A stretch of 64,000 bases of DNA from Candidatus Oxydemutatoraceae bacterium (GCA_965211995.1 OZ243040.1:1555363-1619362); one strand, 5' to 3'; numbered from the stretch's first letter, positions 4,767 through 47,089 are shown. Program-made: numbers and translations. The notes: generated from the sequence alone by a model not told the origin.

Positions 4767-4975
4767 CTGCGCGGTCGCAACGGCGGCACCGGCGAGGTGC
4801 CTGATCCCGGCGGCGTACGGAATCAGCCGTTATAATCACAGCCGCCGCCGCGTGATGGCGGTCTGTCCACTCAGCGAAATTCTGAAACAACGTTACTTGG
4901 CGAACCCCGACGATGGTTGATTGCGCGGTCGCAACGGCGGCACCGGCGAGGCGTCTGATCCCGGCGGCGGTTGCC
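4668..4975. repeat. tandem duplication, 2 x ~154 bp (~90% identical), spanning the mltB 3' end and the rlpA 5' end
   Basis: 'atcagccgttataatcacagccgccgc...gaaattctgaaacaacgttacttgg...gatggttga(c/t)tgcgcggtcgcaacggcggcaccggcgagg' occurs at 4668 and again at 4822. Confidence 0.85.
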
Positions 4976-9692: not shown

Positions 9693-10388
9693 ATGGAGAA
9701 TATGACTCAAAGTCACCCAACTGCCGCCGCGCAGAGACTCAAATTGGAACAAGCCGACTTCACACCCAATCAGGCCGATGCCCTGACTCAAGCCATCGGA
9801 CGACTGGCCACCAAAGGCGAGTTGAACGAGGCGGTGTCGAACCTTGTCACCAAAGACGAGTTCAGGGAAGCCATATCGCACATGGTCACCAAGGATGAAT
9901 TCCTGGAAGCCATATCACACATGGTCACCAAGGATGAATTCCTGGAAGCCATATCGCGCATGGTCACCAAGGATGAATTCTTGGAAGCCATATCGAATAT
10001 GGTCACCAAGGAAGAACTCGCAAGAGTCGAGGCCAGGCTGGACCATATGGCAACCAAGGAAGACCTCGCAAGAGTCGAGGCCAGGCTGGACAACACAGCA
10101 ACCAAGGAAGACCTCGCAAGAGTCGAAGCCAGGCTGGACAACACAGCAACCAAGGAAGACCTCGCAAGAGTCGAGGCCAGGCTGGACAACACAGCAACCA
10201 AGGAAGACCTCCTGAAAATCCAACTGGCAACCAAGGAAGAACTCCTGAAAGTCCAAGTCGATCTGATGAAGTATTTGGACAAGAAGATCTTCCATTTGCT
10301 CATCATGGTGCCGGTGCTCGTGGTCGCCGTGACCGGCGCGATGCTCGCCTTTGCACCGCCGCTGCTCAAACTGCTGTGGGGCGGCTGA
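9693..10388 (+). CDS. coiled-coil repeat protein with C-terminal TM anchor, tentatively DUF1640/CCDC90-like
   Basis: GGAGG 7 nt upstream of the ATG; four 13-aa repeats 'VTKDEFLEAISHM' and four 16-aa repeats 'ATKEDLARVEARLDNT', then hydrophobic tail 'IFHLLIMVPVLVVAVTGAMLAF'. Confidence 0.5.
   Translation: MENMTQSHPTAAAQRLKLEQADFTPNQADALTQAIGRLATKGELNEAVSNLVTKDEFREAISHMVTKDEFLEAISHMVTKDEFLEAISRMVTKDEFLEAISNMVTKEELARVEARLDHMATKEDLARVEARLDNTATKEDLARVEARLDNTATKEDLARVEARLDNTATKEDLLKIQLATKEELLKVQVDLMKYLDKKIFHLLIMVPVLVVAVTGAMLAFAPPLLKLLWGG
9846..10200 (+). repeat. in-frame tandem repeats inside the CDS: 4 x 39 bp followed by 4 x 48 bp
   Basis: 'gtcaccaaggatgaattcctggaagccatatc.cacatg' x4, then 'gcaaccaaggaagacctcgcaagagtcgaggccaggctggacaacaca' x4, near-perfect copies. 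Confidence 0.9.
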
Positions 10389-12566: not shown

Positions 12567-13529
12567 TTACTTCTTTGTTTCATAATTCTCTAAAACTAGT
12601 TGAGCAAAGTGCTCTCCATCAATAAGCACAATATTTTTCCCGGTCGAGTCGTAATAATCGTCAGCTTTTTTTATGGCTTCTTCTGAAATTTTCCCTGACG
12701 TAATTACCATTCCAAGTTGGGTGTCTTCGTGTTTCATGCCTCGAATTAACTGCTCTACAACTTCTGCGCCGGCTGGTGAATCAGGTTGCCAATACTTTGC
12801 TTGAACGGCGACCTTCTGCTCAAACATACCTGCAACCGTAAAGTCTGCAATCACATCAGCCCCTTTATCTTTGCAGCGGGCCACGACCTTAGATTCCTCG
12901 GCTCCCATATTTAGCAGCACCCTTTCAATAAGGCGCTCAAATTCATCAGGATTCATTCTGCCTGTTCTAATCTCTTCAAGCGTTTGCGAAATTAACTTTT
13001 GCTTAAGGTCACTTTCAAATGTGGGCTCATCTCCGGTCTTGGCAATGTTTAAGCAATCCTTAATTTGATCAATTAAGCGAGTGGCATCCGCACTGGTGCC
13101 TCGTATTTTCATCCGTGCAACCAGTGCAGATTTAGCGAATTTTCTTTCGATCGGCTTCTTTTCATTTAGCCACTTTACCGGTCTGCGGTAAGCCGAATCA
13201 TCATCTTTCTTTTCAGGCAAGTATGTTGCCGAACCTATGACTTCAGCGACATAAAACTTTGACCCGCTATGAGGAACGACGACTAAATCCCCTACACCCA
13301 TGTCACGTATAAAGCGCCACATATGTCCAGCTGCGCTGCCTGCTTTTCGAAAATCTGGGTCATCTGGATGATATTTTTTATGGATGATCTCTCTAAACTC
13401 CATCCATTTTAGACCCTTATCTAAGAGCCCTTCCGCATCAGCCCAACCGATAATTAATTGGTTTGATTCAAGCGCTTCTTGAACGCAATCTTTCCCGCTT
13501 GGAGATATTCTAAGAATGAATGCTTTCAT
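12567..13529 (-). CDS. Mrr-type PD-(D/E)xK restriction endonuclease with an N-terminal PUA/EVE-like domain (putative modification-dependent nuclease)
   Basis: Low-GC gene. C-terminal 'GADVIADF...FEQKVAVQAKYW' is the Mrr_cat D-(E/Q)xK motif; the N-terminal ~150 aa are beta-rich with 'GDLVVVPHSGSKFYVAEVIG', resembling a PUA-like reader fold. Confidence 0.6.
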   Translation of the reverse strand: MKAFILRISPSGKDCVQEALESNQLIIGWADAEGLLDKGLKWMEFREIIHKKYHPDDPDFRKAGSAAGHMWRFIRDMGVGDLVVVPHSGSKFYVAEVIGSATYLPEKKDDDSAYRRPVKWLNEKKPIERKFAKSALVARMKIRGTSADATRLIDQIKDCLNIAKTGDEPTFESDLKQKLISQTLEEIRTGRMNPDEFERLIERVLLNMGAEESKVVARCKDKGADVIADFTVAGMFEQKVAVQAKYWQPDSPAGAEVVEQLIRGMKHEDTQLGMVITSGKISEEAIKKADDYYDSTGKNIVLIDGEHFAQLVLENYETKK

Positions 13530-13556
13530 TTTCCAAGTCCCTTGGTTAAGTTGAAT

Positions 13557-14426
13557 TCAGGCGAATAGCTTTTTCAGCCATGTAAAAACGCCGGGATAAT
13601 GTTGCAAATCCAGCACGAACTCCTGACCGATTTTTGCAGAGTCCAGAAGCGTAAATTTATTGCCTTTGACTTTCTTCCAGTTCGTCATTCTTTTGTTATA
13701 ACTTAAAGCAAGTTCCTCGCTTTTTGGATAAAAACAGATCGGCAGTTCCCAAACTGATTTGTTGTTTTGGGTCATATCAGTCAGAATCTGTATCGGCTTA
13801 ACCTTATTAAAAACACCATAGCCCGCTTGATTGGAATTGATTTTAGAGGGTAAGGCTCGACTGCCCACATAAACGGTGTTTTTCTTGTTGTCTATGCCGC
13901 ACAAATGGGGATGATGTTTGAGCCATGGATATTTTTTAAGAACGTCTTTCTCTTTGCCATATATCGGGATTACTTCTTCAACGAACAGCCATCCGTATAT
14001 TGCGTGCATATTTATCGAATCCCGCTTGAACTTCCAAGTTCCCCCGTGTTTCTCTATTTCTCTGAACCAGCCGAAGTAAATAAACAGATCCCCCACCCCG
14101 ACACCGGCATTTTCCAAATGCCCTTGGGCGGCACCCACTTGTCCGAATGCCCCTTTCCAACCTTTCGGTCTATTCGCAAGGAGTCGCCGGTCTATGTCGG
14201 GATCGAGATGAACATATTTCGAAACCCCAGATTTCTTCTTTCCTGTCAGGCTTTGAACAATATCAACTATGTCATAACCTTTTACATTCAGATCATTTAA
14301 TCTCGTCGGTGAACGTGAGGCTGGAATCGGCAGAGAAACCATTCCCCCATCTGGAAGTATCGGACTTGGTATTCCCCCATTGGAAGAATCGAATCCTTTT
14401 CTGCTTAGAATGATTTTCATCTGCAC
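13557..14426 (-). CDS. hypothetical protein (289 aa) encoded immediately upstream of the Mrr-like nuclease; no recognisable family
   Basis: Low-GC ORF, co-directional with the nuclease gene 27 bp downstream; N-terminus 'MKIILSRKGFDSSNGGIPSPILPDGGMVSLPIP'; a second PUA-like-looking segment 'GDLFIYFGWF...HAIYGWLFVEEV'. Confidence 0.5.
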   Translation of the reverse strand: MQMKIILSRKGFDSSNGGIPSPILPDGGMVSLPIPASRSPTRLNDLNVKGYDIVDIVQSLTGKKKSGVSKYVHLDPDIDRRLLANRPKGWKGAFGQVGAAQGHLENAGVGVGDLFIYFGWFREIEKHGGTWKFKRDSINMHAIYGWLFVEEVIPIYGKEKDVLKKYPWLKHHPHLCGIDNKKNTVYVGSRALPSKINSNQAGYGVFNKVKPIQILTDMTQNNKSVWELPICFYPKSEELALSYNKRMTNWKKVKGNKFTLLDSAKIGQEFVLDLQHYPGVFTWLKKLFA

Positions 14427-14632
14427 TTGCCGAGCGTTTTACACTTTATGCGCGTCCCTTTAGAGGGCTGGCATCTTTCAGATGGTTTTAGACGCTCACC
14501 TCTTCTACATCTGCTGCAAACTTTAGAGGGGGGCATTTTTTAGCCCGTTTTAGAATTTCTAAAACTTCTTCATAAACCTTCTTACGTTCAGGTTGTCGTT
14601 CAAGTTGTGAGGAGGATATCTTTATACGCCGT

Positions 14633-15742
14633 TTGCCATTTCCTCCGTACATATACTCATGTAGTTTTGGGGCGATTTTTTTAACAAAATCTCCTTTCTC
14701 TACCGTTCGCTGCCTCAGAACCTTGTGCCACCTGCCGAAACATCCGAACGGCATCGCGGTCAGGGAGTTGCGCCGGAGATTGCGCAACGACAGATTCGAG
14801 ATCAGCATCCGCACCCTGCAACGCGACCTGCGCGATTTGTCCGTCGCTTTTCCCATCACCGCCGAGGAGCAGGGGCGCCGCCTGGTTTGGTGCTGGTCTC
14901 GCGACGCCACGCTTTTTTCGATCCCGTCCATGGACGCCTACACCGCGCTGACTTTTATGCTGGCCGAGTCACATCTGGCCGAGTTGTTTCCCGCAAGCAT
15001 CGGCTCGGGCCTTAAGCCGTACTTCGATGCGGCGCGGAAGGTTCTGAAGAAAAGCGGGAGAGGCCATCTGAGCGAGTGGAAAAGGAAAGTCAGAGTTATT
15101 CCGCGCAGCCAGTCGCTGATGCCGGCACGCATACGCCCGCGGGTGAACCACGCGGTACACGACGCGCTGCTGCGGGACAAGCGGCTGCACGTCCGGTACC
15201 GGGCACGCGACGCATCGCAGGACGACGAGTGGGAAATCAACCCTCTTGCGCTCGTGCATCGCCACGGGGTGAGTTACCTGGTTTGCACTTCAGAAAAAGA
15301 TCGCAACGTCAGGCAACTGGCATTGCACCGTTTTCGCACAGCCAGGGTGCTGGACAAAGCGATTGTAAAACCGATCGGAGTTGATCTGAGCGAGTTTTGG
15401 CAATCAAAGCCGTTCGATTATCCCACCGGCGGCAAAATTGATTTGGACGTGTTGTTTGACGCCGGGGTTGCGAAACACTTGCGGGAAACCCCGCTCGGCC
15501 CGGCAGCCGCCAGCCGCCAGCCGGTTGCGAAACACTTGCGGGAAACCCCGCTCGGCCCGGGGCAGAGTTTGTGCAAGCATCCCGGCGGACGAACGAGATT
15601 AAGGATCAATATCGAAAGCACTTCTCAACTGCGCTGGTGGTTGTTGGGTTTCGGCAATTACGCCGAGGTCGTCGGCCCCAGGGAACTGAGAGCCGAGTTC
15701 ACGCGGATAGCACGGGGCCTCGGCGAGATGTATTCGCTGTAA
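14633..15742 (+). CDS. WYL-domain transcriptional regulator (HTH-WYL-WCX, BrxR/CapW-like)
   Basis: HTH 'GIAVRELRRRLRNDRFEISIRTLQRDLRDL'; WYL core 'LHVRYRARDASQDDEWEINPLALVHRHGVSYLVCTSEKDRNVRQLALHRF'; divergent from the minus-strand operon; start uncertain (an alternative TTG further downstream is possible); internal 57-bp in-frame duplication at 15467-15580. Confidence 0.7.
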   Translation: MPFPPYIYSCSFGAIFLTKSPFSTVRCLRTLCHLPKHPNGIAVRELRRRLRNDRFEISIRTLQRDLRDLSVAFPITAEEQGRRLVWCWSRDATLFSIPSMDAYTALTFMLAESHLAELFPASIGSGLKPYFDAARKVLKKSGRGHLSEWKRKVRVIPRSQSLMPARIRPRVNHAVHDALLRDKRLHVRYRARDASQDDEWEINPLALVHRHGVSYLVCTSEKDRNVRQLALHRFRTARVLDKAIVKPIGVDLSEFWQSKPFDYPTGGKIDLDVLFDAGVAKHLRETPLGPAAASRQPVAKHLRETPLGPGQSLCKHPGGRTRLRINIESTSQLRWWLLGFGNYAEVVGPRELRAEFTRIARGLGEMYSL

Positions 15743-15753
15743 GCAAGGTGCTC

Positions 15754-18501
15754 TCACCCCGTCCAGCCAAGTCCCGCCGCCACGCAGTTAATTGACAACA
15801 GCAGCGCGACCAGTTTTTCCTGATGGCTGCTCTCATCGGTCACGTCCATGCCGCGCAACTCGGAGATCAAGCGCACCTGTTCAAACCCGGCTTGATCCAC
15901 CATCGGCAGGCGTCTTTCGAGGCGGCGCCCGAAGCGCGGGAATCTCTCGCACAGGTGTTTTTTGCCGGTAATGCTGAGCAGCATTTCCGCGCTCAGGCGG
16001 TACTCGTCCTTGATCAGGCCGAAGATCTTGTCGCGCACGCCGGTGTCGGGCACCATCTCCGCGTAAGCGGCGGCGATATCAAGATTGACCTGCGGCAGGT
16101 TCTTTTCGACTTCGTTGGCGATCAGGCGAAACAAAGGGCAGTCCCGCAGCATCGTGCGCAGCAACGCAAGCGCGCCTTCATGTTCCGACACCAAGGTCCG
16201 CACCGCGGAACCGAAGCCGAACCAGCCGGGCACCATCATTCGGTTCTGCGACCACGCGAACACCCAGGGGATCGCGCGCAGGTCGTCGAGCGTGCCGGCG
16301 CCAAAGCGCTGTGCCGGGCGCGACCCGATCTTCAGCAGCGCCAACTCCCCGACCGGACTCGCCGCCTGATAGAACATAAGCAGTCCTTTCTGATCAGCCA
16401 ATCGGCGGTAGGCCGCGAACGAAGCGGCGGACAAGGTTTCCATCGCCGCATCGAATTCGCTGTTGCGCGTCAGCCGCCGGTCAACGCCGGACAGCAGGCT
16501 GTGTTCAAGCGCCGACGCGCACAGCATTTCCAGTTGATGCTCGGCGGTGCCCAGGTTCGCGAACTTTGCAGACACCACTTCGCCCTGTTCGGTCACCCGC
16601 ATTCTGCCGTTGACCGTGAACGGCGGCTGCGCGGCAATTGCGTCCTCGATCGGGGCGCCGCCGCGGCTGCTCGAACCGCCGCGCCCGTGGAAAAAAGACA
16701 CCGCGACGCCGTGCTCACGGCCGACGGCGTGCAGCCGTTGCTGCGCCTTGCCGGTCTCCCAGTTCGAGCAGACGAAGCCGCCGTCCTTGTTGGAGTCCGA
16801 ATACCCGACCATGATCTCCTGCACGCCGCCGAGCGAGTCAAGCGTGCGGCGCACGGCGTCCGCCGTCAGGATTTCCGCAAGAATGTCCGGCCCCTTGCGC
16901 AGATCGTTGATGGTTTCGAGCAGCGGCACCACCGCGATGCGGCACGCGCCGGCGTTGAATAATCCGGCGAACTTCGCGAGCAGATAGACGTTCAAAACGT
17001 CCGCGCCTGAGCGCGTCATGCTCAGGATGAAACTGTTGAACGCGGATTTGTCGAGACGGCCACCGACTTCGGCGACGAGACGGAAGATCTTGAAAGTCTC
17101 GACGGTTTGCCCGGACAATTCAGTGTCCGGAGGCAGGCGCGGGCAGGGCGCGTCGAGCAGTTCCGCCACCCATTTCAGATAGTCGCCGCCGGCTTGCGGC
17201 GGGCGCAGTTCCGCCTTGGCCAAAATCTCCGTCAGGGCCTGATTGATGCGGGTCGAGTTTTCCCTGAGGTCGAGGCTTGCCGTTCTGAAACCGAAGGTCC
17301 GGGCGATGCGGATCAGGCGCAAGACGTAACGGCGGGCGAGGCCGTCGGCGGCCGCGTCGTTCAGACAGCGATACATGATTTCGAGGTCGTCCAGCAATGC
17401 TTCGGCGTCGCGGTAGCCACCGTCGCTTGCGGCGGCGGTGTTTTTGATTTTGGTGATAACGCAGCGCGCGTATTGGCGGAACAACTCTCCGGGGTTGCGC
17501 TTTTCCGTCGCGTCGCGTTCTCCGGAGGCGTCGAGCAACTCGTTCAGGCGCCGCCGAAAATAGCCGGGGACATTGATCGCATGAGCGGCAATGCTCAAAT
17601 GCCTGAGCAGCCCCCTCATTTCCGTTTCCAGGTTGGCGAGGCTGGTCGCACGGTACGTGAACAAAGCCTTGCGCGTGACGTCCGCGGTCACGAACGGGTT
17701 GCCGTCGCGGTCGCCGCCGATCCACGAACCGAAACGCAGCAGCGCCGCGGTTGTCGCGGGCGCCGCCTCGGGGTAATGGGCGGCGAGAGCATCGCAGAGT
17801 TGCTCGTGCACGGTGTTGACCGCTTCAAAGATGGATTCGTGAAAAAAATGGCAGCCCCACGCGATCTCGTCTTCGACCGACGGCTTCTCCAAGCGGATTT
17901 CCCCGGTCATCCACAGCAGGTCTATCTCGTCGCGCAGGCGCAGGATCAATTCGTTGCGCTCCCGCGGCGTCCAGCGCGCGAGTTCGAGTTCTTTCAGCCG
18001 CAGGTAGATGCGCCGGTGTATCTGCAAAACGGTGATGCGCTTGGCTTCGGTCGGATGCGCGGTGATGACCGGCTGTATCAGCGTATCGTTGAGCAGCGCT
18101 TGCACGGTGTCGGCGGTGAGTTCTTTTTCGCGCGCGGCGGCGAACAAACTCATGAACGTGCCATCGTTGCAATCGGCGCCGAGCGAAGTTTCAATCTCGC
18201 GGCGGCGGCGCACGGTCGCGTTCTGCTCGAGGATGTTCAGCAACTGAAACCAGATCCCGCGTGCCTGCAGCGTGTGCAGCAGGTCGAGGTCGCTGCGCGC
18301 GCGCATTTGCCTGCCGGTAAACAACTCTTCTATATGCGGCCGCCGGCGGCGGATAACGTCGAGCAGCAGTTCGTGAAACAGTTGCAGCGTGCGTTCAGCG
18401 TAGGCGATTGAACGCCGGCTGATCTCGGCACGGTCGCGCCCGCGGCGGGGTGCAACCGGTTCGAGGTAGCCGGGATGGTCGCAACGGCGGGTGGCTGTCA
18501 T
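15754..18501 (-). CDS. ppc: phosphoenolpyruvate carboxylase
   Basis: 'VITAHPTEAKR' PEPC signature, ~915 aa; alternative start at 18528 ('MSLRLSLKF'). Confidence 0.9.
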   Translation of the reverse strand: MTATRRCDHPGYLEPVAPRRGRDRAEISRRSIAYAERTLQLFHELLLDVIRRRRPHIEELFTGRQMRARSDLDLLHTLQARGIWFQLLNILEQNATVRRRREIETSLGADCNDGTFMSLFAAAREKELTADTVQALLNDTLIQPVITAHPTEAKRITVLQIHRRIYLRLKELELARWTPRERNELILRLRDEIDLLWMTGEIRLEKPSVEDEIAWGCHFFHESIFEAVNTVHEQLCDALAAHYPEAAPATTAALLRFGSWIGGDRDGNPFVTADVTRKALFTYRATSLANLETEMRGLLRHLSIAAHAINVPGYFRRRLNELLDASGERDATEKRNPGELFRQYARCVITKIKNTAAASDGGYRDAEALLDDLEIMYRCLNDAAADGLARRYVLRLIRIARTFGFRTASLDLRENSTRINQALTEILAKAELRPPQAGGDYLKWVAELLDAPCPRLPPDTELSGQTVETFKIFRLVAEVGGRLDKSAFNSFILSMTRSGADVLNVYLLAKFAGLFNAGACRIAVVPLLETINDLRKGPDILAEILTADAVRRTLDSLGGVQEIMVGYSDSNKDGGFVCSNWETGKAQQRLHAVGREHGVAVSFFHGRGGSSSRGGAPIEDAIAAQPPFTVNGRMRVTEQGEVVSAKFANLGTAEHQLEMLCASALEHSLLSGVDRRLTRNSEFDAAMETLSAASFAAYRRLADQKGLLMFYQAASPVGELALLKIGSRPAQRFGAGTLDDLRAIPWVFAWSQNRMMVPGWFGFGSAVRTLVSEHEGALALLRTMLRDCPLFRLIANEVEKNLPQVNLDIAAAYAEMVPDTGVRDKIFGLIKDEYRLSAEMLLSITGKKHLCERFPRFGRRLERRLPMVDQAGFEQVRLISELRGMDVTDESSHQEKLVALLLSINCVAAGLGWTG

Positions 18502-18610
18502 GAACTTGAGGCTCAACCGCAAAGACAAACCCGCCGACGCCGCGGATTCCCGACGACGACACGGGCGGGAATGACGACGCGGATGCCTGCGCGAAAGTCA
18601 AAAGACGTCA

Positions 18611-18832
18611 TCACTGCGCCCCTTCGCTCGACGTCTGCGGAGGCAACAGCAGGCGGATGATATCGAGCAGCAGTGCGTGAAACAGTTGCAGCGTGCGTTC
18701 AGCGCAGGCGATTGAACGCCGGCTGATCCCGGCACGGTCGCGCCCGCGGCGGGGTGCAACCGGTTCGAGGTAGCCGGGATGGTCGCAGCGGCGGGTGGCT
18801 GTCATGAACTGGGGACTCAATTGCAAAGACAA
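18611..18832 (-). pseudogene. truncated ppc N-terminal copy (repeat unit 2)
   Basis: Encodes 'MSLQLSPQFMTATRRCDHPGYLEPVAPRRGRDRAGISRRSIACAERTLQLFHALLLD', then runs out of frame. Confidence 0.6.
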
Positions 18833-18917
18833 ACCCGCCGACGCCGCGGATTCCCGACGACGACGGCACGGGTGGGAATGACGACGCGGACGCCTGCGCG
18901 AAAGTCAAAAGACATTA

Positions 18918-19139
18918 TCACTGCGTTCCTTTGACCGCCATCTGCGGAGGCAACAGCAGGCGGATGACATCGAGCAGCAGTGCGTGAAACAGTTGCAGCG
19001 TGCGTTCAGCACAGGCGATTGAACGCCGGCTGATCCCGGCACGGTCGCGCCCGCGGCGGGGTGCAACCGGTTCGAGGTAGCCGGGATGGTCGCAGCGGCG
19101 GGTGGCTGTCATGAACTGGGGACTCCATTGCAAAGACAA
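18918..19139 (-). pseudogene. truncated ppc N-terminal copy (repeat unit 3)
   Basis: Encodes 'MSLQWSPQFMTATRRCDHPGYLEPVAPRRGRDRAGISRRSIACAERTLQLFHALLLD', then diverges. Confidence 0.6.
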
Positions 19140-19321
19140 ACCCGCCGACGCCGCGGATTCCCGACGACGACGATGCGGGCGGGAATGACGCCACGAACGC
19201 CTGCGCGAAAGTCAAAAGACATCATCACTGCGCCCCTTTGCTCGACGTCTGCGGGCACAACAGGCGTTGCATTTCGGATTTGAATTCGCCGGATGGGCGA
19301 AGCAGAGCGGTCGCGGCTTCC

Positions 19322-20296
19322 TCAGGCGACTCGGTCTCCGGGTTTTCCGCCGGCGAGATAGGTGCGGAGATTTTCGAGAACGCGCCGGCCCATCGCGATG
19401 CGCGTTTCAGACGACGCGCTGCCGAGATGCGGCAGCAGCACCGCGTTTTCGAGCATCAGAAAACCCTGGTCGAGGGCGGGCTCGCCTTCGTACACGTCGA
19501 GGCCGGCGCCCGCGATGCGATTGCGGCTGAGCGCTTCTATCAGCGCCCGGTTATCTATGACGTCGCCGCGCGCGGTGTTGATCAGATACGCCCCCGGCTT
19601 CATCAGCGCCAGCCGCTCCCGGTTGATCAGGTGGTAAGTCTGCTTGCCGCCGGGGCAATGCAGTGAAACAAAATCGGCTTTCGGCAGCAGGTCTTCGAGC
19701 GAGTCGCAACGCTCGGCGTTGTACTTCTTCGTCACTTCGATGGGGACGTCAAACGGATCCGTGTAGATGATCTTCATGCCGAAACCGAAATGCGCCTTGT
19801 TCGAGACCGCTTGGGCGATGCGCCCGAAGCCGACCAGCCCCAGCGTTTTGCCGGTGACTTTGGTGCCGACCATATGCGTCGGGCGCCAGCCTTCCCACGC
19901 CTGCGCGCGCACGTGGCGTTCGCCTTCGCCGATGCGGCGCGCGACCGCGAGCATCAGCACCATCGCGATATCGGCGGTGCAGTCGGTCAGCACTTCGGGC
20001 GTGTTGGTGACGACCAGCCCCGCGGCTTTGGCCGCATCCAAATCTATGTGGTTGAAACCGACGCCGAAGTTGCCGAGAAACTTGCAGCGCATATCGGAGA
20101 CGCCGAGCACCTCCGCGTCAAACGCGTCGGTCACGGTCGGCAACACGCAGTCGGCGCTGTGCAGCGCGTCTTTGAGTTCGTCTTTCGACAGCGGGCGGTC
20201 GGCTTCGTTAAGCCGGACGTCGCCGCACATTTGTTGCAGTTCTTCTTCGACGACGCCCGGCCAGCGCCGCGTAACGATGACTGTTTTGTCTTTCAT
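19322..20296 (-). CDS. hprA: D-isomer-specific 2-hydroxyacid dehydrogenase, probably hydroxypyruvate reductase of the serine cycle
   Basis: NAD-binding 'GLVGFGRIAQAV'; catalytic R/E/H pattern; sits in the serine-cycle cluster; start taken at 'MKDKTVIV'. Confidence 0.75.
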   Translation of the reverse strand: MKDKTVIVTRRWPGVVEEELQQMCGDVRLNEADRPLSKDELKDALHSADCVLPTVTDAFDAEVLGVSDMRCKFLGNFGVGFNHIDLDAAKAAGLVVTNTPEVLTDCTADIAMVLMLAVARRIGEGERHVRAQAWEGWRPTHMVGTKVTGKTLGLVGFGRIAQAVSNKAHFGFGMKIIYTDPFDVPIEVTKKYNAERCDSLEDLLPKADFVSLHCPGGKQTYHLINRERLALMKPGAYLINTARGDVIDNRALIEALSRNRIAGAGLDVYEGEPALDQGFLMLENAVLLPHLGSASSETRIAMGRRVLENLRTYLAGGKPGDRVA

Positions 20297-20377
20297 TTCA
20301 AAAATCCTTGAGGGCATGGTTCCCTTATTTTAACGGCGCCGGCGGAAACCGGGTGCCATGGGCCAAAATCGCGTTAT

Positions 20378-21265
20378 TCAACACCGGCTTAGCGCTTGTT
20401 CCATGGTGGCGCCCAGTTCCGACGGACTCGGCGCGAGGATCGCACCGGCTTCCTGCAAAATCTTGACTTTCTCGGCGGCGCTTTCGCCCTTGCCCGACAC
20501 GATCGCGCCGGCGTGGCCCATGCGCCGCCCTTTCGGCGCGGTCAGCCCCGCGATGTACGCGACCACCGGCTTGCTCATCCGCTCGCGAATGTAGTCGGCG
20601 GCTTCGGCCTCCTGCGGCCCGCCGATCTCGCCGATCAACATCACCGCCTTGGTAGCGCTATCGGCCTCGAACAGTTCGAGGATGTCGCGGTGCGAACTGC
20701 CGTTGATCGGGTCGCCGCCGATGCCGACGCTGGTCGAGATGCCGATGCCGGCGGCTTTCATCTGCGACGCGGCTTCGTAGCCGAGCGTGCCTGAGCGCGC
20801 GACTACGCCGACCTCGCCGGGCATATAGATGTGTCCGGGCATGATGCCGAGCAGCGCCTTGCCCGGGGTGATCGTGCCCGCGCAGTTGGGGCCGGTCAGG
20901 ATCATCTTGTCTTTGCGCCGGTAGCGGCGCATGAAGCGCTTGACTTTCATCATGTCGAGCGTCGGGATGCCGTCGGTGATCGCAACGCAGTAACGGATGC
21001 CGGCGTCGGCGGCCTCCATGATCGAATCCGCCGCCGCCGCCGCGGGCACGAACACGATGCTGGTGTCGGCACCGGTCGCGGCGACGGCTTCCTTGACGGT
21101 GTTGAACACCGGCTTGTTGAGGTGCGCCTGCCCGCCCTTGACCGGCGTCACGCCGCCGACGACGTTGGTGCCGTATTCCATCATCTCTTTGGCGTGGAAC
21201 GAGCCGATGCGCCCGGTAAAGCCCTGGATGATGACTTCGCTGTGCTCGTCTAGCAGGATGGACAC
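20378..21265 (-). CDS. mtkB: malate thiokinase small subunit (succinyl-CoA synthetase alpha-like)
   Basis: SucD-like CoA-binding fold; the context between mcl and hprA argues for Mtk rather than SucD. Confidence 0.7.
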   Translation of the reverse strand: MSILLDEHSEVIIQGFTGRIGSFHAKEMMEYGTNVVGGVTPVKGGQAHLNKPVFNTVKEAVAATGADTSIVFVPAAAAADSIMEAADAGIRYCVAITDGIPTLDMMKVKRFMRRYRRKDKMILTGPNCAGTITPGKALLGIMPGHIYMPGEVGVVARSGTLGYEAASQMKAAGIGISTSVGIGGDPINGSSHRDILELFEADSATKAVMLIGEIGGPQEAEAADYIRERMSKPVVAYIAGLTAPKGRRMGHAGAIVSGKGESAAEKVKILQEAGAILAPSPSELGATMEQALSRC

Positions 21266-21270
21266 GGCGT

Positions 21271-22437
21271 TTAACCCCGGTTGACCGCCGCAACCGCGTG
21301 TTGCGCGGCTTCGCCGAGCGTGTCGGCGGAGATGATCGGGAAGTCGCTGTCCTCGAGCATCTGCTTGCCGAGTTCGACGTTGGTGCCCGACAAACGCACG
21401 ATCAGCGGAACGTTGACTTCGAGTTTCTTGACCGCCTTGACGATGCCCTCGGCGATCCAGTCACAGCGGTTGATGCCGGCGTAGATGTTGACCAGCAACG
21501 CCTTGACGTTGTCGTCCTCAAGCACCAGTTCAAACGCCTTCGCGACCCGTTCGGGCGACGCGCCGCCGCCGATGTCGAGGAAGTTCGCGGGCTCGCCGCC
21601 GACGTGCTTGATCATGTCCATCGTCGCCATCGCCAGCCCGGCGCCGTTGATCATGCAGCCGATGTTGCCGCCGAGGCCGACGTAGCTGAGGTCGTGGTCG
21701 GAGGCGCGGGTCTCGCGCGGGTCTTCCTGCGACTTGTCGCGCCGCTCGGTGATCTCGGGGTGGCGAAACAGCGCGTTGTCGTCGAAGTTGATCTTTGCAT
21801 CAAGCGCAATCAGGCGCTTCTGGCGCGTCACCACCAGCGGGTTGATCTCGACCATGTTCGCGTCGAGCGTGATCAGGACGTTGTAGCAGGCCATGAAAGT
21901 GGTGATCGCCTGTTTGACCACTTCCCCGGACAGGTCGAGCGAGAATGCGAGTTCGCGCGCCTGAAAGGCGGTCAGCCCGACCGCCGGGTCCACCGGCACG
22001 CGCATGATCGCCGCGGGGTTTTTGGCCGAGACTTCCTCGATCTCCACGCCGCCCTCGCTCGAAACCACCGCGACGACGCGCTCGCTCGCGCGGTCAACCA
22101 CGAACGCCGCGTAGATCTCGCGCTCGATCTCGCTCGCGGCTTCGATATAGACTTTCTCGACGATCTTGCCCTGCGGGCCGGTCTGGTGCGTCACCAGGCG
22201 CGAGCCGATCAACTTGTCGGCGGCCTTCGCGACTTCGCGGTCGCTCTCGCAGACGATGATGCCGCCGGCCTTGCCGCGCGCCCCCGAGTGCACCTGCGCC
22301 TTGAGCACGCATTTTTCGATTGCGAGCGAGCGGTAACTGACCACCGCCTGCTCCGGGCTGAAAGCGATCCTGCCGGGGGAAATTCTGACGCCGTGCTCGG
22401 CGAGCAGTTCCTTGGCCTGGTATTCGTGAATGTTCAC
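21271..22437 (-). CDS. mtkA: malate thiokinase large subunit (succinyl-CoA synthetase beta-like, ATP-grasp)
   Basis: 'MNIHEYQAKELL' SucC-like N-terminus; serine-cycle context. Confidence 0.7.
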   Translation of the reverse strand: MNIHEYQAKELLAEHGVRISPGRIAFSPEQAVVSYRSLAIEKCVLKAQVHSGARGKAGGIIVCESDREVAKAADKLIGSRLVTHQTGPQGKIVEKVYIEAASEIEREIYAAFVVDRASERVVAVVSSEGGVEIEEVSAKNPAAIMRVPVDPAVGLTAFQARELAFSLDLSGEVVKQAITTFMACYNVLITLDANMVEINPLVVTRQKRLIALDAKINFDDNALFRHPEITERRDKSQEDPRETRASDHDLSYVGLGGNIGCMINGAGLAMATMDMIKHVGGEPANFLDIGGGASPERVAKAFELVLEDDNVKALLVNIYAGINRCDWIAEGIVKAVKKLEVNVPLIVRLSGTNVELGKQMLEDSDFPIISADTLGEAAQHAVAAVNRG

Positions 22438-22462
22438 CGCCGTGGTTCGCTGAGGCGCCGGT

Positions 22463-23416
22463 TCAAACGCCCCCCTCTTTGGCGTTGATCGCGTCGGCGG
22501 TGCGCACGACGTTCTCAGCCATGCGCGCCGAGGCCGCGTCGATCATCTTGCCGTCGAGCGAGGCTGCGCCGCGTCCCTCGCGCGCGGCTTTGTCGAGTTC
22601 CGCGAGGATCTTGCGCGCTTTTTCGATCTCGGCGGGCGGCGGCGAAAACACCCGGTTCGCGAGTTCGATCTGCAAGGGGTGGATCGCCCATTTGCCTTCG
22701 ATGCCGAGCGCCGCGGCGCGCTTCGCCGCGAAAATGTAGCCGTCGGAGTCCCTGAAATCTCCGAACGGGCCGTCGATCGGGCGCAGGCCGCAGGCGCGGC
22801 AGGCGACGGTCATGCGGCTGAGCGCCGCGTGCCACTGATCGCCCGGGTAGTCGGGATTGAGGCCGCCGATGTTGACCGTGCGCGCACGGTTGCTCGCGGC
22901 GTAATCGGCGACGCCGAAGTGCATCGCCTCCAGGCGCGTGCCGCGCGCGGCGGCAATCGCCTCGACGTGGGCCATGCCGATTGCGGTTTCGATCAGCGCT
23001 TCCAGTCCGATGCGGTGCTCGATGCCCATCGCTTCCTCGATCTGGGTCACCATCATGTCCACCGCGTACAGATCCGCGGGCACGCCGACCTTCGGCACCA
23101 GGATTGTGTCCAGGTGTCGCCCGGCCTGCTCGACCACGTCCACCACGTCGCGGTACATATAGTGTGTGTCGAGACCGTTGATGCGCACCGACACGGTCTT
23201 GTCGGCGGCTTTCCAATCAAGGTCGTTGAGCGCCTGGATTGCGTTCTTGCGCGCCTGCGGCTTGTCGTCGGGCGCAACCGCGTCCTCAAGATCAAGAAAC
23301 ACGTAATCGGCGTCCGACGCGAGCGCCTTTTCGATCATGCCGGGGTTCGACGCCGGCACCGCGAGTTCGCTGCGCTGCACGCGGGCGGTCGCGGGTTCGT
23401 AACGTGTGTGGCTCAT
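22463..23416 (-). CDS. mcl: malyl-CoA lyase (HpcH/HpaI aldolase, citrate lyase beta-like)
   Basis: CitE/HpcH family sequence adjacent to mtkAB. Confidence 0.75.
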   Translation of the reverse strand: MSHTRYEPATARVQRSELAVPASNPGMIEKALASDADYVFLDLEDAVAPDDKPQARKNAIQALNDLDWKAADKTVSVRINGLDTHYMYRDVVDVVEQAGRHLDTILVPKVGVPADLYAVDMMVTQIEEAMGIEHRIGLEALIETAIGMAHVEAIAAARGTRLEAMHFGVADYAASNRARTVNIGGLNPDYPGDQWHAALSRMTVACRACGLRPIDGPFGDFRDSDGYIFAAKRAAALGIEGKWAIHPLQIELANRVFSPPPAEIEKARKILAELDKAAREGRGAASLDGKMIDAASARMAENVVRTADAINAKEGGV

Positions 23417-23437
23417 GGTCGTGTTGCGCGCCGGGGC

Positions 23438-24700
23438 TCAGCCGCGGCTCTTTGCGGTGGCTTTGGGGCGCCCCGGCTTTTTGGGCGCGGGCTTTTTGAC
23501 CGCTACCTTTTTGGCCTTGGACTTTTTCGCGCCGGGCGCGGTTTCGCGGAAGTATTCCTCGGCCGCGGCGGTGCCGCTGCCGGCGGCAATCTTGAGACCC
23601 GCGTCGCGCATCGCCATTTCGGTGCCCGCGAGCGCCGCGAGGATCGAGGTCTCGTTGTTGTCTCCGAGATGCCCGATGCGGAACACCTTGCCCGCGAGTT
23701 TGGAAAGCCCCGCGCCAAGCGAGATGTTGTAGCGGTGGTAGGCGATATCAATCACCTTGCGCGCGTCGCGGCTCGGCGGCACGACAATCGCCGTGACCGT
23801 GTCCGAATACCATTTCGGCTCTTTCGCGCAGGTCTTGAGACCCCACGCCCAAATCGCGCGGCGCACGCCTTCGGCGAGGCGGTGGTGGCGCTTGAACACG
23901 CTGTTGAGGCCCTCGTCGAGCAGCAGGTCGAGCGACTTTCTCAAGCCGTACAGCAGCGGGATCGAGGGGGTGTACGGAAAGAAACCGTCCTTGTTGGTGA
24001 CGATATGGTCTTCGATGTCGAGATAGCACCGTGCGCACTTTGCTTGCTTGCGAGATTGCAACGCCCTTTTGCTGAAGCATGCGAGCGCGAGTCCCGCCGG
24101 CAGCATGAAGCCCTTTTGCGAGCCGCTGATCGCGACGTCCACTTTCCAGTCGTCCATGCGGAAGTCCACGCTCGCGATTGAACTGACGCCGTCCACGTAG
24201 AGCATCGCCGGGTGCTTGACCCGATCGAGCACTTTGCGCACGCCGCGCACGTCGCTGGCGACGCCGGTCGCGGTTTCGTTCTGGCACACCATCACGCCCT
24301 TGATCTGGTGGCGGGTGTCGGCCTTGAGGCGCTTTTGGAGTCTGTCGAGCGGAAAACCCTGCCCCCACGGCGTCTCGAAAACCTCGACGTCGAGGCCGAC
24401 GCGCTGCGCGAGATCAATCCACAGGTGGCTGAACTGCCCGAAGCGCGCGCTCAGCACTTTGTCTCCCGGCGACCGCGTGTTCACCAGCGCGACCTCCCAG
24501 CCGGCGGTGCCTGAGCCGGGGAAGATGAACGATTGCCCCGTCTCGGTTTTGAAAACCCGGTTGAGATCCCTGAACAGCGGCTTGGTCAGTTTGTGCATGT
24601 CGGGGCGACGGTGATCCTCCTGCGGAACGCGCATCGCGTTGTCAACGGCCGCCGGCAGATTGGTCGGGCCCGGCACATATAAGAAATTACGTCCTGGCAT
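23438..24700 (-). CDS. sga: serine--glyoxylate aminotransferase (class V aminotransferase)
   Basis: 'MPGRNFLYVPGPTNLP' start, PLP-lysine region 'SGSQKG'; unusual Lys/Ala/Pro-rich C-terminal tail. Confidence 0.8.
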   Translation of the reverse strand: MPGRNFLYVPGPTNLPAAVDNAMRVPQEDHRRPDMHKLTKPLFRDLNRVFKTETGQSFIFPGSGTAGWEVALVNTRSPGDKVLSARFGQFSHLWIDLAQRVGLDVEVFETPWGQGFPLDRLQKRLKADTRHQIKGVMVCQNETATGVASDVRGVRKVLDRVKHPAMLYVDGVSSIASVDFRMDDWKVDVAISGSQKGFMLPAGLALACFSKRALQSRKQAKCARCYLDIEDHIVTNKDGFFPYTPSIPLLYGLRKSLDLLLDEGLNSVFKRHHRLAEGVRRAIWAWGLKTCAKEPKWYSDTVTAIVVPPSRDARKVIDIAYHRYNISLGAGLSKLAGKVFRIGHLGDNNETSILAALAGTEMAMRDAGLKIAAGSGTAAAEEYFRETAPGAKKSKAKKVAVKKPAPKKPGRPKATAKSRG

Positions 24701-25252
24701 GGTTGTTGTCCTGAAGTTCGGTTGAGTGGGCAATGGATTTCGCCGGGAAAAACCGGGCGAAGCCGGCAATTATGCCGCAAACAGCGGCTGTTTCTCAAGC
24801 GGGCGTAAGTCCGATGCAAGTCAGAAGCGTATGCCCTGCTCCGGGGCATGGCTCCCCGGGACGGGGATCAAGACGGCGCTTGCTGCCGCCCGCGGCAAAG
24901 GGATGCCATGACGCGGGAGGCTGGAACCGTGTTCGGCGGGGGGTTGACCGGCTAAGGCTGAGTGAGGCGGGGCAAAGTCGGGGCACCTCAGACCAACTGA
25001 AGCAACGGCTGCAACAGGGTGCGTGGGTGCCATTGACTGACACCTTTACCGGTGCGCGGCGTACCCGTTTGACCGCTAGAGGGAAATGGAGCGTTGCAAC
25101 GGGGTTAAGGGGGATTCCCTCGCGCCAAGAGGAAAGCGGTTTGTGACGTTCGGCAATGCCGGCATCGCCAAACGCTGAAACAGCGCCGTTCCATCCGTGG
25201 AGATATCAAGTCGGAATCTATGCGGACTTTTTTTTGCAAGTCGGTTTTTCTT

Positions 25253-25455
25253 CTACAGACCGAGGAGGCTAAAAGGAATTGGCTGTTGGCGCCTGGGTTT
25301 GGGGGGTTCGCGCGGGGGATTAGTGTCAATGCCGCCGGCTTCAAGTTCCGCCTGCTTTTGTTGCCACTCGTGAAATCCGCGCAAGTTCATTTGCGGGTTT
25401 TGGGCGGCAATTTCCTCCATGGTCAGTATTTTGGGAGGTGTTGGCTTGTTCATAA
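25253..25455 (-). CDS. small hypothetical protein (~66 aa)
   Basis: ORF 5 bp downstream of the membrane-protein gene; no recognisable motif. Confidence 0.25.
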
Positions 25456-25587
25456 GAGACTCCTGGTATGGACAGTGGACAGCCACTCTTGGATAAGCGA
25501 CCTGGACAATTCCGCCGCCAATTCTATCTGATGACGTGCGCTTGGGGGGTATTGATGCGGATGGACAACTGAGAACATACATACCTC

Positions 25588-26253
25588 CTACCGTCGGCGT
25601 ATGTAATAACCGCTATCACTGTCAAGGGGAATTTCATCCCCTTCCTGAGCATGATCGCTTTCCAAGTGCTTCCATGAAAGCCACAAGACCATAACAGTGG
25701 CCACTAGTATAGATCCTACTATCCACCACCTGTATGGGACACATCCAGGGTCAAAACACATCAGGCTGAAAACAAGCAACACCGACCAAATAACCGTGCT
25801 CAAAAGACTTACAGCAATACCAATTTTAGAAACAGAAAAGGGGGACGCTGAAAGAAGCGAATTTGATCCAGTATATTCGTGGATAGATGTCTTATATAAT
25901 TTGCCTGTAATTTCATCCTCTAAAAAGTCAATATTTTTCTCCCAAATCTCTTGCCAATACCGACTACCCTTATTAGCCAACCACCACCAAAAAGAAAGGA
26001 TCAGTCCAACAGAACTCAGAGCAACAGAGGCTACCCATAGGACCAAACCGTTTTGAGACTTTACCAAACCAGCATAAGCGACAAACGCAAGTGCAATAAA
26101 AACCCAAAAATAAGCCGACCTTTTCCAAAAAAGATCTATTTCAAACCGACGTATTTCATGTGCGTATTTAAGTGCTCTTGCCTGCATACGCTCTCTCTGG
26201 GGGTTATCCCCAAAAGCCTCGCGCAGGTACTTTTGTCTGGCAGTTTCATTCAT
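25588..26253 (-). CDS. hypothetical 4-TM membrane protein, coupled to the res gene
   Basis: 221 aa, two hydrophobic helix pairs; starts 15 bp after the res stop; low GC. Confidence 0.5.
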   Translation of the reverse strand: MNETARQKYLREAFGDNPQRERMQARALKYAHEIRRFEIDLFWKRSAYFWVFIALAFVAYAGLVKSQNGLVLWVASVALSSVGLILSFWWWLANKGSRYWQEIWEKNIDFLEDEITGKLYKTSIHEYTGSNSLLSASPFSVSKIGIAVSLLSTVIWSVLLVFSLMCFDPGCVPYRWWIVGSILVATVMVLWLSWKHLESDHAQEGDEIPLDSDSGYYIRRR

Positions 26254-26268
26254 GCGGTAAAGACCCGG

Positions 26269-28950: not shown

Positions 28951-28965
28951 AATTATTGGGGGAAT

Positions 28966-33861: not shown

Positions 33862-34304
33862 TATGACTGTATTGTAGCGACGGCGAGGCCGAAATTCAAT
33901 ATAAGAGAAGTTGACTTATCTTATAGGGGTTTTCTGTCGTTTTAATTTATTAATCATAGATTTATATCCGTACGAAAATTGGGATGGCAGGAATCTGGAA
34001 ACATCCGGCGTTTTATCTCATGGATGCGGCTTTTGGGGTGCTTTGTCTCATATTTTCAGTTTTATGAGACAATTTAGGGGGTTTGTGTTATCTATGAGGC
34101 ATTAATCTAGGATTACGATCAACTCCGAAAAACAGCACAATGCCGTCCTGCCACCCCTTCCCGGCATTATTTTCTGAATAATTCCCCCTTTTCAAGGAGA
34201 TTCAGCAGTCGCGCCGCACTGGGACGCGGGACAACAGCCCTGTCCCGAAAATCAACGCCGGTGAACCACGGTTCGGAAAAAATGAAATTGGTAATCTGTG
34301 TGCT

Positions 34305-34531
34305 CGCATTCGTAGGCGATGTGTTGTCTGATTTTGTCAAAGATCTGGTTCATGGATTGGCGGCTAATGCCGACGATTTAAGCGACTTTGCAGGCTTCGA
34401 TATCGAGGCAAAACAGGCGCAGGATTTGGCGGAATTTCGCCCCGGAAATTCGTGAACGGATGATATACTTTTTTTCATTTATATAACAATGTGTTATGCG
34501 CATTTTAGTATACCTTAAGTTGTCTTGAACC
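34305..34531 (-). mobile_element. IS1595-family remnant (left end only: terminal inverted repeat plus ~60 codons of the transposase N-terminus)
   Basis: ~85% identical to 55540-55763, including the inverted repeat 'ttaagttgtcttgaacc' and the 'MKNKY...' start region. Confidence 0.6.
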
Positions 34532-34578
34532 TATTTAAATGTAGCACTAGTTGCTTAGGTGATGTATCATGACGATAC

Positions 34579-35379: not shown

Positions 35380-35449
35380 TCGCGGCCGCTGCGGGGCGTT
35401 GGCGGCGGACTGTCCCGCCGGAATAAACCGCGGCTTCGCTATTCCCCGC

Positions 35450-47048: not shown

Positions 47049-47089
47049 AGCGTTGACTCCCAATAAAGCGCAAACACCGCGCACCGCAA

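Follow-up and report, generated by a model that had tools for sequence, protein, structure and literature searches.

Adaptive tandem duplications of promoter regions are known from bacterial amplification under selection and from the TR34 and TR46 repeats in the cyp51A promoter of Aspergillus fumigatus. Also known are intrinsic terminators or attenuators inside operons, as well as intercistronic hairpins that stabilise the message. Tandem repeats of 300 nt are normally soon lost through recombination. The serine-cycle genes of the methylotroph Methylobacterium extorquens are found in the clusters sga-hpr-mtdA-fch and mtkA-mtkB-ppc-mcl. Short microhomology at the duplication junctions is the signature of a microhomology-mediated tandem duplication (MTD) growing into tandem repeats (Wei et al., bioRxiv 10.64898/2026.02.28.708716; Haber & Louis model).

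The locus described here, a repeat array between hprA and ppc, lies in a 64-kb stretch of DNA (hereafter the window) from a gammaproteobacterial lineage of 'Candidatus Oxydemutatoraceae'-type MAGs; a search of the literature on Candidatus Oxydemutatoraceae returned one paper, which has the name once and nothing relevant beyond it. We conclude that the array is probably a real and fairly old segmental tandem duplication, and a neutral scar rather than a designed regulatory device.

Layout of the array between hprA and ppc

Positions 18348-19262 of the window hold, on the minus strand, three head-to-tail units of 304, 307 and 304 nt. Read along that strand, the order is the stop codon of the hprA-like gene (19322-19324), a unique spacer, unit 3, unit 2, unit 1 and the remainder of ppc:

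19322..20317, minus strand: hprA-like 2-hydroxyacid dehydrogenase gene (glyoxylate/hydroxypyruvate reductase family), an ORF whose gene order is syntenic in relatives
19263..19321, minus strand: unique, non-duplicated spacer after the hprA stop, 55 nt plus the distal CGCC arm (19263-19266)
18959..19262, minus strand: unit 3, distal, 304 nt (150 nt upstream part and 154-nt ppc 5' fragment), with a CGCC end at 18959-18962
18652..18958, minus strand: unit 2, middle, 307 nt, a probable unequal-crossover hybrid, with a CGCC end at 18652-18655
18348..18651, minus strand: unit 1, proximal, 304 nt, running into intact ppc, with a CGCC arm at 18348-18351
15754..18501, minus strand: intact ppc, PEP carboxylase, 915 aa plus stop (P0001, 100% identity), whose N-terminus aligns with relatives

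An earlier note on this DNA had described the ppc 5' region as tandemly triplicated between the two genes, and this is confirmed. Tandem Repeats Finder reports a single array at 18348-19254 (period 307, 3.0 copies, 92% matches, 0% indels, score 1572), and the repeat search and a MAFFT alignment concur with it. Each unit consists of 150-153 nt of the hprA-ppc spacer followed by 154 nt of the ppc start, that is, 51 codons and not the approximately 48 first reported. The units abut without any spacer at 18958/18959 and 18651/18652, and with the array in place the hprA-ppc spacer measures 820 nt instead of 209 nt. Every unit has its own ATG (19112 in unit 3, 18805 in unit 2 and 18501 in unit 1); as the earlier note had also stated, only the proximal one, at 18501, opens the 915-aa ppc.

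The 4-nt microhomology CGCC is present at all four unit boundaries, at the coordinates given above, and the array displays the pattern MH-X-MH-X-MH, with the arm at the flanks, at every junction and once more at the end. The original flanks of the duplicated segment read AACGCC|TG and TCCGCC|GC, and the two internal junctions are identical. Two stretches of 22-28 nt within the unit were found in the three units only when the 64-kb window was searched, with 0 occurrences expected by chance; a dispersed REP- or MITE-like element was rejected on the ground that the unit core is restricted in this way.

The array was found in none of the eight relatives that carry the hprA-ppc region (Ppc identity 56-81%), all of which have a single copy. 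The nearest other Ppc on record is 81% identical. Metagenome contigs scanned for exact copies of the 28-nt unit core gave 0 matches, and exact-protein look-ups of HprA and Ppc returned no contig on record.

The genes around the array encode a class-V aminotransferase, a malyl-CoA-lyase-like CitE protein, the beta and alpha subunits of malate-CoA ligase, a hydroxypyruvate-reductase-like dehydrogenase and PEP carboxylase, in the order aminotransferase-mcl-mtkA-mtkB-hprA-ppc and in one string; several of the family scores lie under curated cut-offs. For Ppc, there is a precomputed PF00311 match, and NF000584 covers residues 65-915 (E = 3.6e-222) with 740 bits, under the equivalog cut-off of 815. 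Among NCBIfam models the hprA-like gene best matches glyoxylate reductase (E = 1.6e-80), with a score short of the curated cut-off. The ppc gene itself is intact and under purifying selection.

Divergence among the copies and the history it suggests

Pairwise identity between the units is 92-93% (23, 23 and 20 substitutions per ~304 nt), lower than the figure of about 95% given in the earlier note. The copies differ at 32 sites, with 25 transitions and 7 transversions, and the coding part has no indels. The older split is ~5% diverged and the younger one ~1-1.5%, so the array is not the recent amplification that had been considered. The units are also mosaic: sites private to unit 1 make up 3 of the 18 variable sites at columns up to and including 91, versus 11 of the 14 from column 137 onwards (Fisher p = 0.0009). 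Given the CGCC at all boundaries and this changing pattern of variable sites, we infer an old microhomology-mediated tandem duplication followed by expansion through unequal crossover.

The history that we propose would begin with a 304-nt segment made up of the final 150 nt of the spacer between hprA and ppc and codons 1-51 of ppc. The sequence points to a head-to-tail duplication of this segment by illegitimate, slippage-type recombination between two CGCC motifs. After divergence had reached ~5%, an unequal crossover with its exchange point in an invariant block near the hairpin called H2 below would have produced a third, hybrid unit in the middle, as the mosaic of variable sites suggests. 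Because the duplication began in the spacer and ended inside ppc, the proximal copy is an intact ppc with its native leader, and the two distal copies are 5' fragments left free to decay. The array would then merely extend the spacer, adding two decoy 64-aa ORFs and two extra leader hairpins with their U-tracts; overall, it probably changes the expression of ppc little or lowers it mildly, and it would persist because it is nearly neutral. The decoy ORFs are:

18918..19112, minus strand: truncated ORF of unit 3, 64 aa (51 ppc codons and 13 junction-derived codons, with the TGA inside unit 2), carrying E26G, Y34C and E44A
18611..18805, minus strand: truncated ORF of unit 2, 64 aa, carrying E26G, Y34C, E44A and V49I

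These ORFs had been described as 73 aa long, which is their length when read from an upstream TTG. Starting at the ppc ATG gives 64 aa, the form in which the source record annotates both as genes (P0121 and P0122). A sequence record look-up found the 64-aa ORFs in the source contig only. E26 and Y34 are present in intact Ppc and in nearly all of its 17 closest homologues, and are altered in both fragments. Given that E26G and Y34C hit residues conserved in relatives, the two extra copies appear to be decaying fragments. Their changes number 3-4 nonsynonymous versus 3 synonymous, counts too small for dN/dS to separate neutrality from constraint. The two 64-aa 'hypothetical proteins' in the public record are ppc 5' fragments and should not count as genes.

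The variable sites are unevenly spread: 24 fall in the 150-nt upstream part and 8 in the coding part of 154 nt (p = 0.0025). This would mostly be accounted for by the history of the hybrid unit, with constraint on the fragments as a possible contribution. Two private clusters do not fit uniform neutral drift: 7 substitutions fall within 25 nt of unit 2 (p = 2e-5), and unit 1 has 5 in the 12 nt immediately before the ATG (p = 0.007). For the cluster of unit 2, no donor is present in the 64-kb window, and gene conversion from a nearby site is thus unsupported. The copies have been retained to 5-8% divergence; since tandem repeats are usually lost fast, such survival calls for deletion to be very rare or for the array to be of some benefit.

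Promoter-like sites, hairpins and alternative readings

The best promoter-like site between positions 15000 and 27000, with a 10/12 match to the consensus, lies 5.7 kb upstream:

24769..24798, minus strand: sigma-70-like promoter TTGAGA-18-CATAAT before the class-V aminotransferase gene, the first of the cluster; conserved in the closest relative (L003)

This site is likely to be the promoter of an aminotransferase-mcl-mtkA-mtkB-hprA-ppc operon. In five of the eight relatives only 21-63 nt separate hprA from ppc, implying that the two are co-transcribed; three relatives have long spacers. We infer that the conserved promoter preceding the aminotransferase gene drives an operon in which ppc comes last.

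A different reading is that the array was selected as a multiplied promoter: the 150-nt part of each unit would hold a ppc-specific promoter (TTGACT or a non-sigma-70 element), and three copies of it would raise transcription and uncouple ppc from the upstream serine-cycle genes, with the truncated ORFs as by-products. TTGACT, a 5/6 match to the -35 hexamer, is indeed conserved in every unit, isolated within a fully conserved stretch (at 19214-19209 in unit 3), but the unit has no -10 element at a usable distance from it, and a sigma-70 consensus scan of 18000-19600 found 0 sites in the spacer or in any unit. A sigma-54 reading, CGGGTT-N4-TTTGCA (GG-N10-GC with TTGCA), was rejected as weak: the -24 element matches by GG only, the leader would be ~7 nt, and the site is degraded in unit 1, the functional one. 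The spacer of 209 nt before duplication was roomy enough for a promoter, and three relatives have long spacers too, yet the 150-nt upstream part is conserved in none of the relatives, where the coding part alone aligns. Any such promoter would also be separated from the ATG by H2 and its U-tract. Retention of the array to its present divergence would fit a benefit of this kind, and so would the closest relative, in which a recognisable promoter of the same operon has been duplicated separately (177 nt x 1.8, covering the promoter and the 5' end of the first gene, with a distal copy that lacks the ATG); that duplication arose independently of the ppc array. Similar arrays in the window, however, cover the 3' ends of genes, where dosage is no obvious explanation. 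Overall, we regard promoter multiplication as unlikely, and the promoter dosage put forward in the earlier note is unsupported, given the lack of sigma-70-like sites in the units, the conserved promoter before the operon and the short spacers of five relatives.

The units do carry hairpins:

19130..19183, minus strand: H2 hairpin and U-tract of unit 3, UUUGUCUUUGC, -22.8 to -25.2 kcal/mol, one of the window's top candidates for a hairpin with a T-tract
18823..18876, minus strand: H2 and U-tract of unit 2, in which the 5' arm differs (G>A and a 3-nt insertion) with stability kept
18519..18569, minus strand: H2 and U-tract of unit 1, ending 17 nt before the ppc ATG
19213..19250, minus strand: H1 of unit 3, a weak hairpin, AGACGUC...GAUGUCUUUUG
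18599-18636 and 18906-18943, minus strand: the H1 equivalents of unit 1 and unit 2, the latter destroyed

H1 of unit 2 is destroyed by that unit's private cluster of substitutions. The stop codon of each truncated ORF sits in the H1 loop of the next unit downstream (units 2 and 1). H2 lies inside the operon spacer, between two co-directional genes. It has 14-15 bp and a stability of -22.8 to -25.8 kcal/mol across the three units (z = -2.1), and in all three it is followed by UUUGUCUUUG, which gives the stem-loop and U-rich tract of an intrinsic terminator. The three copies rank 4th, 6th and 9th among 219 hairpin-plus-T-tract candidates in the window. When the whole 150-nt upstream part was folded unit by unit, no global structure appeared (z = +0.34, -0.83 and -0.38), H2 being the one sub-hairpin to stand out. 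Rfam covariance models run on the whole window at gathering scores gave 0 matches, and at E <= 5 the region 18200-19400 produced chance-level matches only (E >= 0.17).

H2 might accordingly be a partial intrinsic terminator or an RNA-stability hairpin, with three in series lowering or tuning read-through into ppc. Its 3' arm and U-tract are invariant in all units, and alternative pairings make up for changes in the 5' arm; this kept stability hints at a function in every copy. Under this reading, translation of the decoy ORFs would shield the long spacer from Rho-dependent polarity, and the ORFs would therefore stay open; those of units 2 and 3 are in fact intact, and the RNA of the fragments is C-rich (C/G = 1.48). 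Several observations speak against it. The comparison rests on three paralogous sequences, too few for covariation; many equally stable hairpins are found inside genes of this GC-rich window; the U-tract is interrupted; and the invariant block coincides with the proposed crossover site, its largest invariant run being weakly unusual (p = 0.025). Furthermore, since ppc is intact and under purifying selection, termination at H2 cannot be strong. A terminator-like element before the ATG could reduce read-through as easily as raise expression. Taken together, a series of attenuators or insulators seems quite improbable.

The idea that the true genome has one unit or some other number, the repeat having been expanded or strain variants strung together in assembly or polishing, is very unlikely: the source is a single 1.94-Mb metagenome-derived contig, the collections offering no second genome of the species, and the relatives' assemblies of the same long-read kind have coverage down to 4x, but the copies are distinct, with biologically structured differences (the bias towards transitions, the absence of coding indels, the mosaic, and conserved residues kept in the intact copy only), the novel coding-to-upstream junction is present twice and so requires real tandem copies, and relatives with the same assembler naming convention, apparently similar long-read assemblies, show few such arrays.

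Other local duplications and comparison with known systems

Local duplications are frequent in the window: its 64 kb has 9 such loci, against 4 in other loci totalling 164 kb (binomial p = 0.0024). They lie mostly at gene ends, are diverged and measure 150-380 nt, at ~1 per 7-9 kb. Besides the ppc array they include:

mltB/rlpA junction: duplication, x2
queE 3' end: duplication, x2.7, with TGCG microhomology and decayed copies
pmbA-like gene and CCA-enzyme gene, 3' ends: duplications

So many gene-end duplications in one window would make the ppc array an example of a mutational or retention bias acting across the genome, and not a product of selection on ppc. We raise more tentatively, as a doubtful but possible extension, that the array is a visible example of a flood of microhomology-type tandem duplications specific to this lineage. 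If the density of the window held over the 1.94-Mb chromosome, there would be some 200 such scars, an unusually high number for a small bacterial genome. A flood of this kind would indicate that lagging-strand flap processing or recombinational deletion is defective or peculiar, and a few of the arrays, among them that of ppc, could have been recruited to tune expression by means of serial leader hairpins or decoy ORFs. Were this to hold across the genome, one could use the lineage as a natural system in which to follow how tandem duplications originate, survive deletion bias and occasionally rewire operons. For ppc and the serine cycle themselves, the array is probably of little consequence, given an intact enzyme gene and extra copies that have the look of neutral debris.

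Compared with the known systems, the array most resembles a repeat derived from an MTD in its head-to-tail copies, in the CGCC arm at both ends and at every junction, in the single copy of its relatives, and in having grown from two to three copies, which degenerated with time. It differs in that its unit is long (304 nt), spans a spacer and the 5' end of a gene, and has copies that are old (5-8% diverged) and probably not polymorphic. With the adaptive promoter duplications it shares the repetition of a region directly upstream of a metabolic gene, which in principle can alter expression; here, however, the unit has no detected promoter, includes 51 codons and yields truncated ORFs, and arrays at gene 3' ends coexist with it. 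As in intra-operon terminators, the ppc leader has a GC-rich hairpin and a U-rich tract between co-directional genes, 17 nt upstream of a start codon, whereas its U-tract is interrupted, it has no supported antiterminator fold or Rfam match, and H2 is a putative terminator. Finally, the same set of enzymes that is clustered in M. extorquens is clustered here, although in a gammaproteobacterial lineage and as one string, aminotransferase-mcl-mtkA-mtkB-hprA-ppc.

Layout of the array and its gene cluster

On the sequence, the array is real and is built as first described. The tandem triplication of the ppc 5′ region put forward in the earlier note is recovered by Tandem Repeats Finder as a single array at 18348-19254 (period 307, 3.0 copies, 92% matches, no indels, score 1572), and a repeat search and a MAFFT alignment of its units give the same array. 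All relevant genes lie on the minus strand.

Array and gene-cluster features, in the direction of reading (gene names from NCBIfam)
24699 (true ATG, near) to 23441 (stop, about), minus: class-V aminotransferase
22463-23416, minus: CitE/malyl-CoA-lyase-like protein
21271-22437, minus: malate-CoA ligase beta
20378-21265, minus: malate-CoA ligase alpha
19322-20317, minus: hprA-like 2-hydroxyacid dehydrogenase
first 55 nt after the hprA stop, minus: unique spacer, then the distal CGCC arm (19263-19266)
19262-18959, minus: unit 3 (distal), ppc ATG at 19112
18958-18652, minus: unit 2 (middle), ppc ATG at 18805
18651-18348, minus: unit 1 (proximal), ppc ATG at 18501
15754-18501, minus: PEP carboxylase (ppc), 915 aa

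Each unit consists of 150-153 nt of upstream sequence and 154 nt of ppc coding sequence (51 codons, not the ~48 claimed), and pairwise identity is 92-93% rather than ~95%. Only the proximal unit runs into full-length ppc, as had been stated: ATG 18501 alone opens the full gene, whose 915-aa product is 100% identical to P0001, a database protein from a 1,943,614-bp contig. The length of 73 aa given for the truncated ORFs holds from an upstream TTG only; from the ppc ATG they are 64 aa long, and these 64-aa ORFs are called genes in the source record and do not occur outside it among about 15 billion proteins.

No second strain was found in 185,579 species genomes or in a 5.8-billion-protein search, the nearest Ppc there being 81% identical. 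The relatives are gammaproteobacterial MAGs of small size (1.7-2.1 Mb), under the label Candidatus Oxydemutatoraceae or uncultured Chromatiales. The order mtkA-mtkB-hprA-ppc is shared by eight, none of which has a repeat between hprA and ppc; the spacer there measures 21, 30, 53, 57 and 63 nt in five genomes and roughly 95-290 nt in the other three. Relatives align with the unit over its coding part alone, the 150-nt upstream part being lineage-specific. In an N-terminal alignment, E26 and Y34 are kept in nearly all of the 17 closest homologues. The intact ppc copy retains both residues; both fragments carry E26G, Y34C and E44A, and are thus probably no longer constrained as Ppc.

The operon is probably flanked by inserted islands at 25588-33861 and 12567-15742. 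The former encodes a type III restriction-modification pair, made up of a ResIII helicase (26272-28950) and an N6/N4 methylase (30224-32500); on the same side lies an AAA_14/DUF4143 ATPase. An Mrr-type endonuclease is found downstream of ppc, as are an AT-rich 289-aa ORF (13557-14426) and an unassigned 369-aa ORF; in relatives, the gene directly 3′ of ppc encodes an AMP-binding ligase.

Promoters and hairpins

On balance, we regard the array as near-neutral debris, which has stretched the distance between hprA and ppc from 209 to 820 nt and supplied a pair of decoy ORFs and a pair of additional leader hairpins. The earlier note had suggested that the triplication could raise ppc promoter dosage. 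A sigma-70 consensus scan finds no site anywhere in 18000-19600, and the sole promoter-like element in the unit is an isolated TTGACT, with no -10 hexamer suitably spaced from it. The top promoter-like site of 15000-27000 is TTGAGA-18-CATAAT (10/12; 24798-24769), 5′ of the aminotransferase gene and found also upstream of its orthologue in the closest relative. The short hprA-ppc spacers of relatives fit with this, and ppc would be the last gene of an operon read from this site. The unit may contain non-sigma-70 promoters. Promoter dosage is unlikely, and the array is not demonstrable as a promoter multiplier.

Each unit does carry H2, a GC-rich hairpin of 14-15 bp followed by UUUGUCUUUG, which ends 17 nt 5′ of the ATG and which, if it terminates at all, would in three serial copies mean less, not more, read-through into ppc. 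The folding energy of H2 varies with the stretch taken, from -22.8 to -25.8 kcal/mol; the z-score is -2.1 in every unit, and the minimum-energy fold makes up 34-56% of the ensemble. Among the window's 219 candidates for a hairpin plus T-tract, both strands included, the three copies come 4th, 6th and 9th. The 3′ arm and U-tract do not vary among units; the 5′ arm does (G>A, 3-nt indels), with re-pairing that keeps equal stability. The upstream part folded as a whole gives no significant fold, and H2 has no Rfam family match. It may act as a partial terminator or attenuator, or else as an intercistronic RNA-stability element, three paralogous sequences being too few for covariation. That the array acts as a serial attenuator, with three H2 copies before ppc, is a reading we hold to be quite improbable.

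Duplications elsewhere in the window

Six more duplications, tandem or near-tandem, are present in the window, with units of 154-380 nt and 85-97% identity, nearly all over a gene end.

Local duplications outside the ppc array
4662-4969: 154 nt x 2, 92% identity; last 99 nt of mltB and first 55 nt of rlpA
35402-36071: 292-nt copies, 86% identity; includes the last 42 nt (36030-36071) of a minus-strand ORF
44489-44894: 162-nt copies, 91% identity; 3′ end of a PmbA/TldD-family gene
47085-47812: 228 nt x 2.7, about 88-92% identity; queE 3′ end, TGCG microhomology, extra copies with indels
60468-60900: 193-nt copies, 97% identity; 3′ end of a CCA/polyA-polymerase gene
61966-62375: 210 nt x 1.9, 96% identity; intergenic

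The queE 3′ end is thus triplicated, with decayed copies. Counted by self-BLAST (at least 100 nt, at least 80% identity, at most 1 kb apart), the window holds 9 such loci in 64 kb versus 4 in 164 kb of other loci, an about 6-fold higher density (binomial p = 0.0024). A duplication straddling a gene end leaves every gene one intact copy, and is therefore of a kind that survives. The closest relative (OZ245010.1; locus L003 435-762, the same as L014 4447-4774) has its own tandem duplication in the serine-cycle operon, 177 nt x 1.8 at 86% identity, which spans the sigma-70-like TTGAGA-18-CATAAT promoter and 48 nt at the start of the aminotransferase gene heading that operon, ATC replacing ATG in the distal copy; the two events are independent. 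Because the window is rich in like duplications, the ppc array is best read as one case of a habit of the whole genome, in mutation or in retention, rather than as an adaptation specific to ppc, and the density of such duplications is a more interesting lead than the array.

Several other repeats were noted. In-frame coding arrays occur at 9846-10256 (39/48/33-nt periods; an ORF of 269 aa whose XhlA-like match is weak), 48715-49209 (a CpoB/YbgF-like TPR protein whose linker has 123-nt, or 41-aa, repeats) and 51039-51739 (45-nt repeats; a TolA-like protein whose C-terminal domain is TonB_2). A conserved hairpin motif, GGCCGGAT-N3-AGTCTGA-N-GTGCGG, is found on the minus strand at 44976-45000, 62108-62132 and 62318-62342, where chance predicts 0 sites; it sits within a longer stem followed by a T-tract, once just 3′ of a minus-strand gene and once in either copy of the 210-nt array that precedes the CCA-enzyme gene. 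It matches no Rfam family and may be a shared terminator or small RNA 3′ end. Direct repeats of 204 nt (97% identity; 55028-55231 and 58576-58779, ~3.5 kb apart) bracket two ORFs (55833-57842 and 57845-58537) that have no Pfam match; the region may be an inserted element with duplicated flanks. An AT-rich repeat of ~230 nt (80% identity; 34302-34533 and 55533-55765) is present twice, 21 kb apart, within a window that is GC-rich elsewhere.

Origin of the array

The three units differ at 32 sites, distributed unevenly in what they tell. From alignment column 137 onwards (the last 17 nt before the ATG and the coding part), 11 of 14 sites split unit 1 from units 2 and 3, as against 3 of 18 up to column 91 (Fisher p = 0.0009). 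In the simplest history, a first duplication would have been followed by ~5% divergence of the two copies; an unequal crossover between them, with its exchange point in the invariant block of columns 92-136, would then have produced a hybrid middle unit, and further divergence of about 1-1.5% would have come after. Most of the excess of variable sites upstream (24, as against 8 in the coding sequence; p = 0.0025) would follow from this history. The array is not recent, contrary to one possibility raised in the earlier note.

Two private clusters are left unexplained by this history. Unit 2 (18906-18943) has 7 private substitutions in 25 nt, which destroy H1, a weak hairpin (permutation p = 2e-5), and the 64-kb window holds no donor sequence for them. 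Unit 1 (18507-18518) has 5 in 12 nt just 5′ of the functional ppc ATG (p = 0.007), which create the palindrome TTGAGCCTCAA. The two clusters may stem from template-switch or patch-type mutation.

An assembly artefact is very hard to credit, given that the 32 differences (25 transitions, 7 transversions, no coding indels) are ordered biologically, with conserved residues in the intact copy only and a mosaic that fits recombination, that the novel coding-to-upstream junction is present twice, and that few arrays occur on relatives' contigs, several of them from similar long-read assemblies as judged from contig names.

The tetranucleotide CGCC stands directly before unit 3, at both internal junctions, which are identical to each other, and at the end of unit 1; the original flanks are AACGCC|TG upstream and TCCGCC|GC in the coding sequence. 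We conclude that the array arose by microhomology-mediated duplication and unequal crossover. Microhomology-mediated tandem duplication with expansion has been reported as the dominant route to tandem repeats (bioRxiv 10.64898/2026.02.28.708716), and the array's MH-X-MH-X-MH-X-MH layout is the signature of that route.
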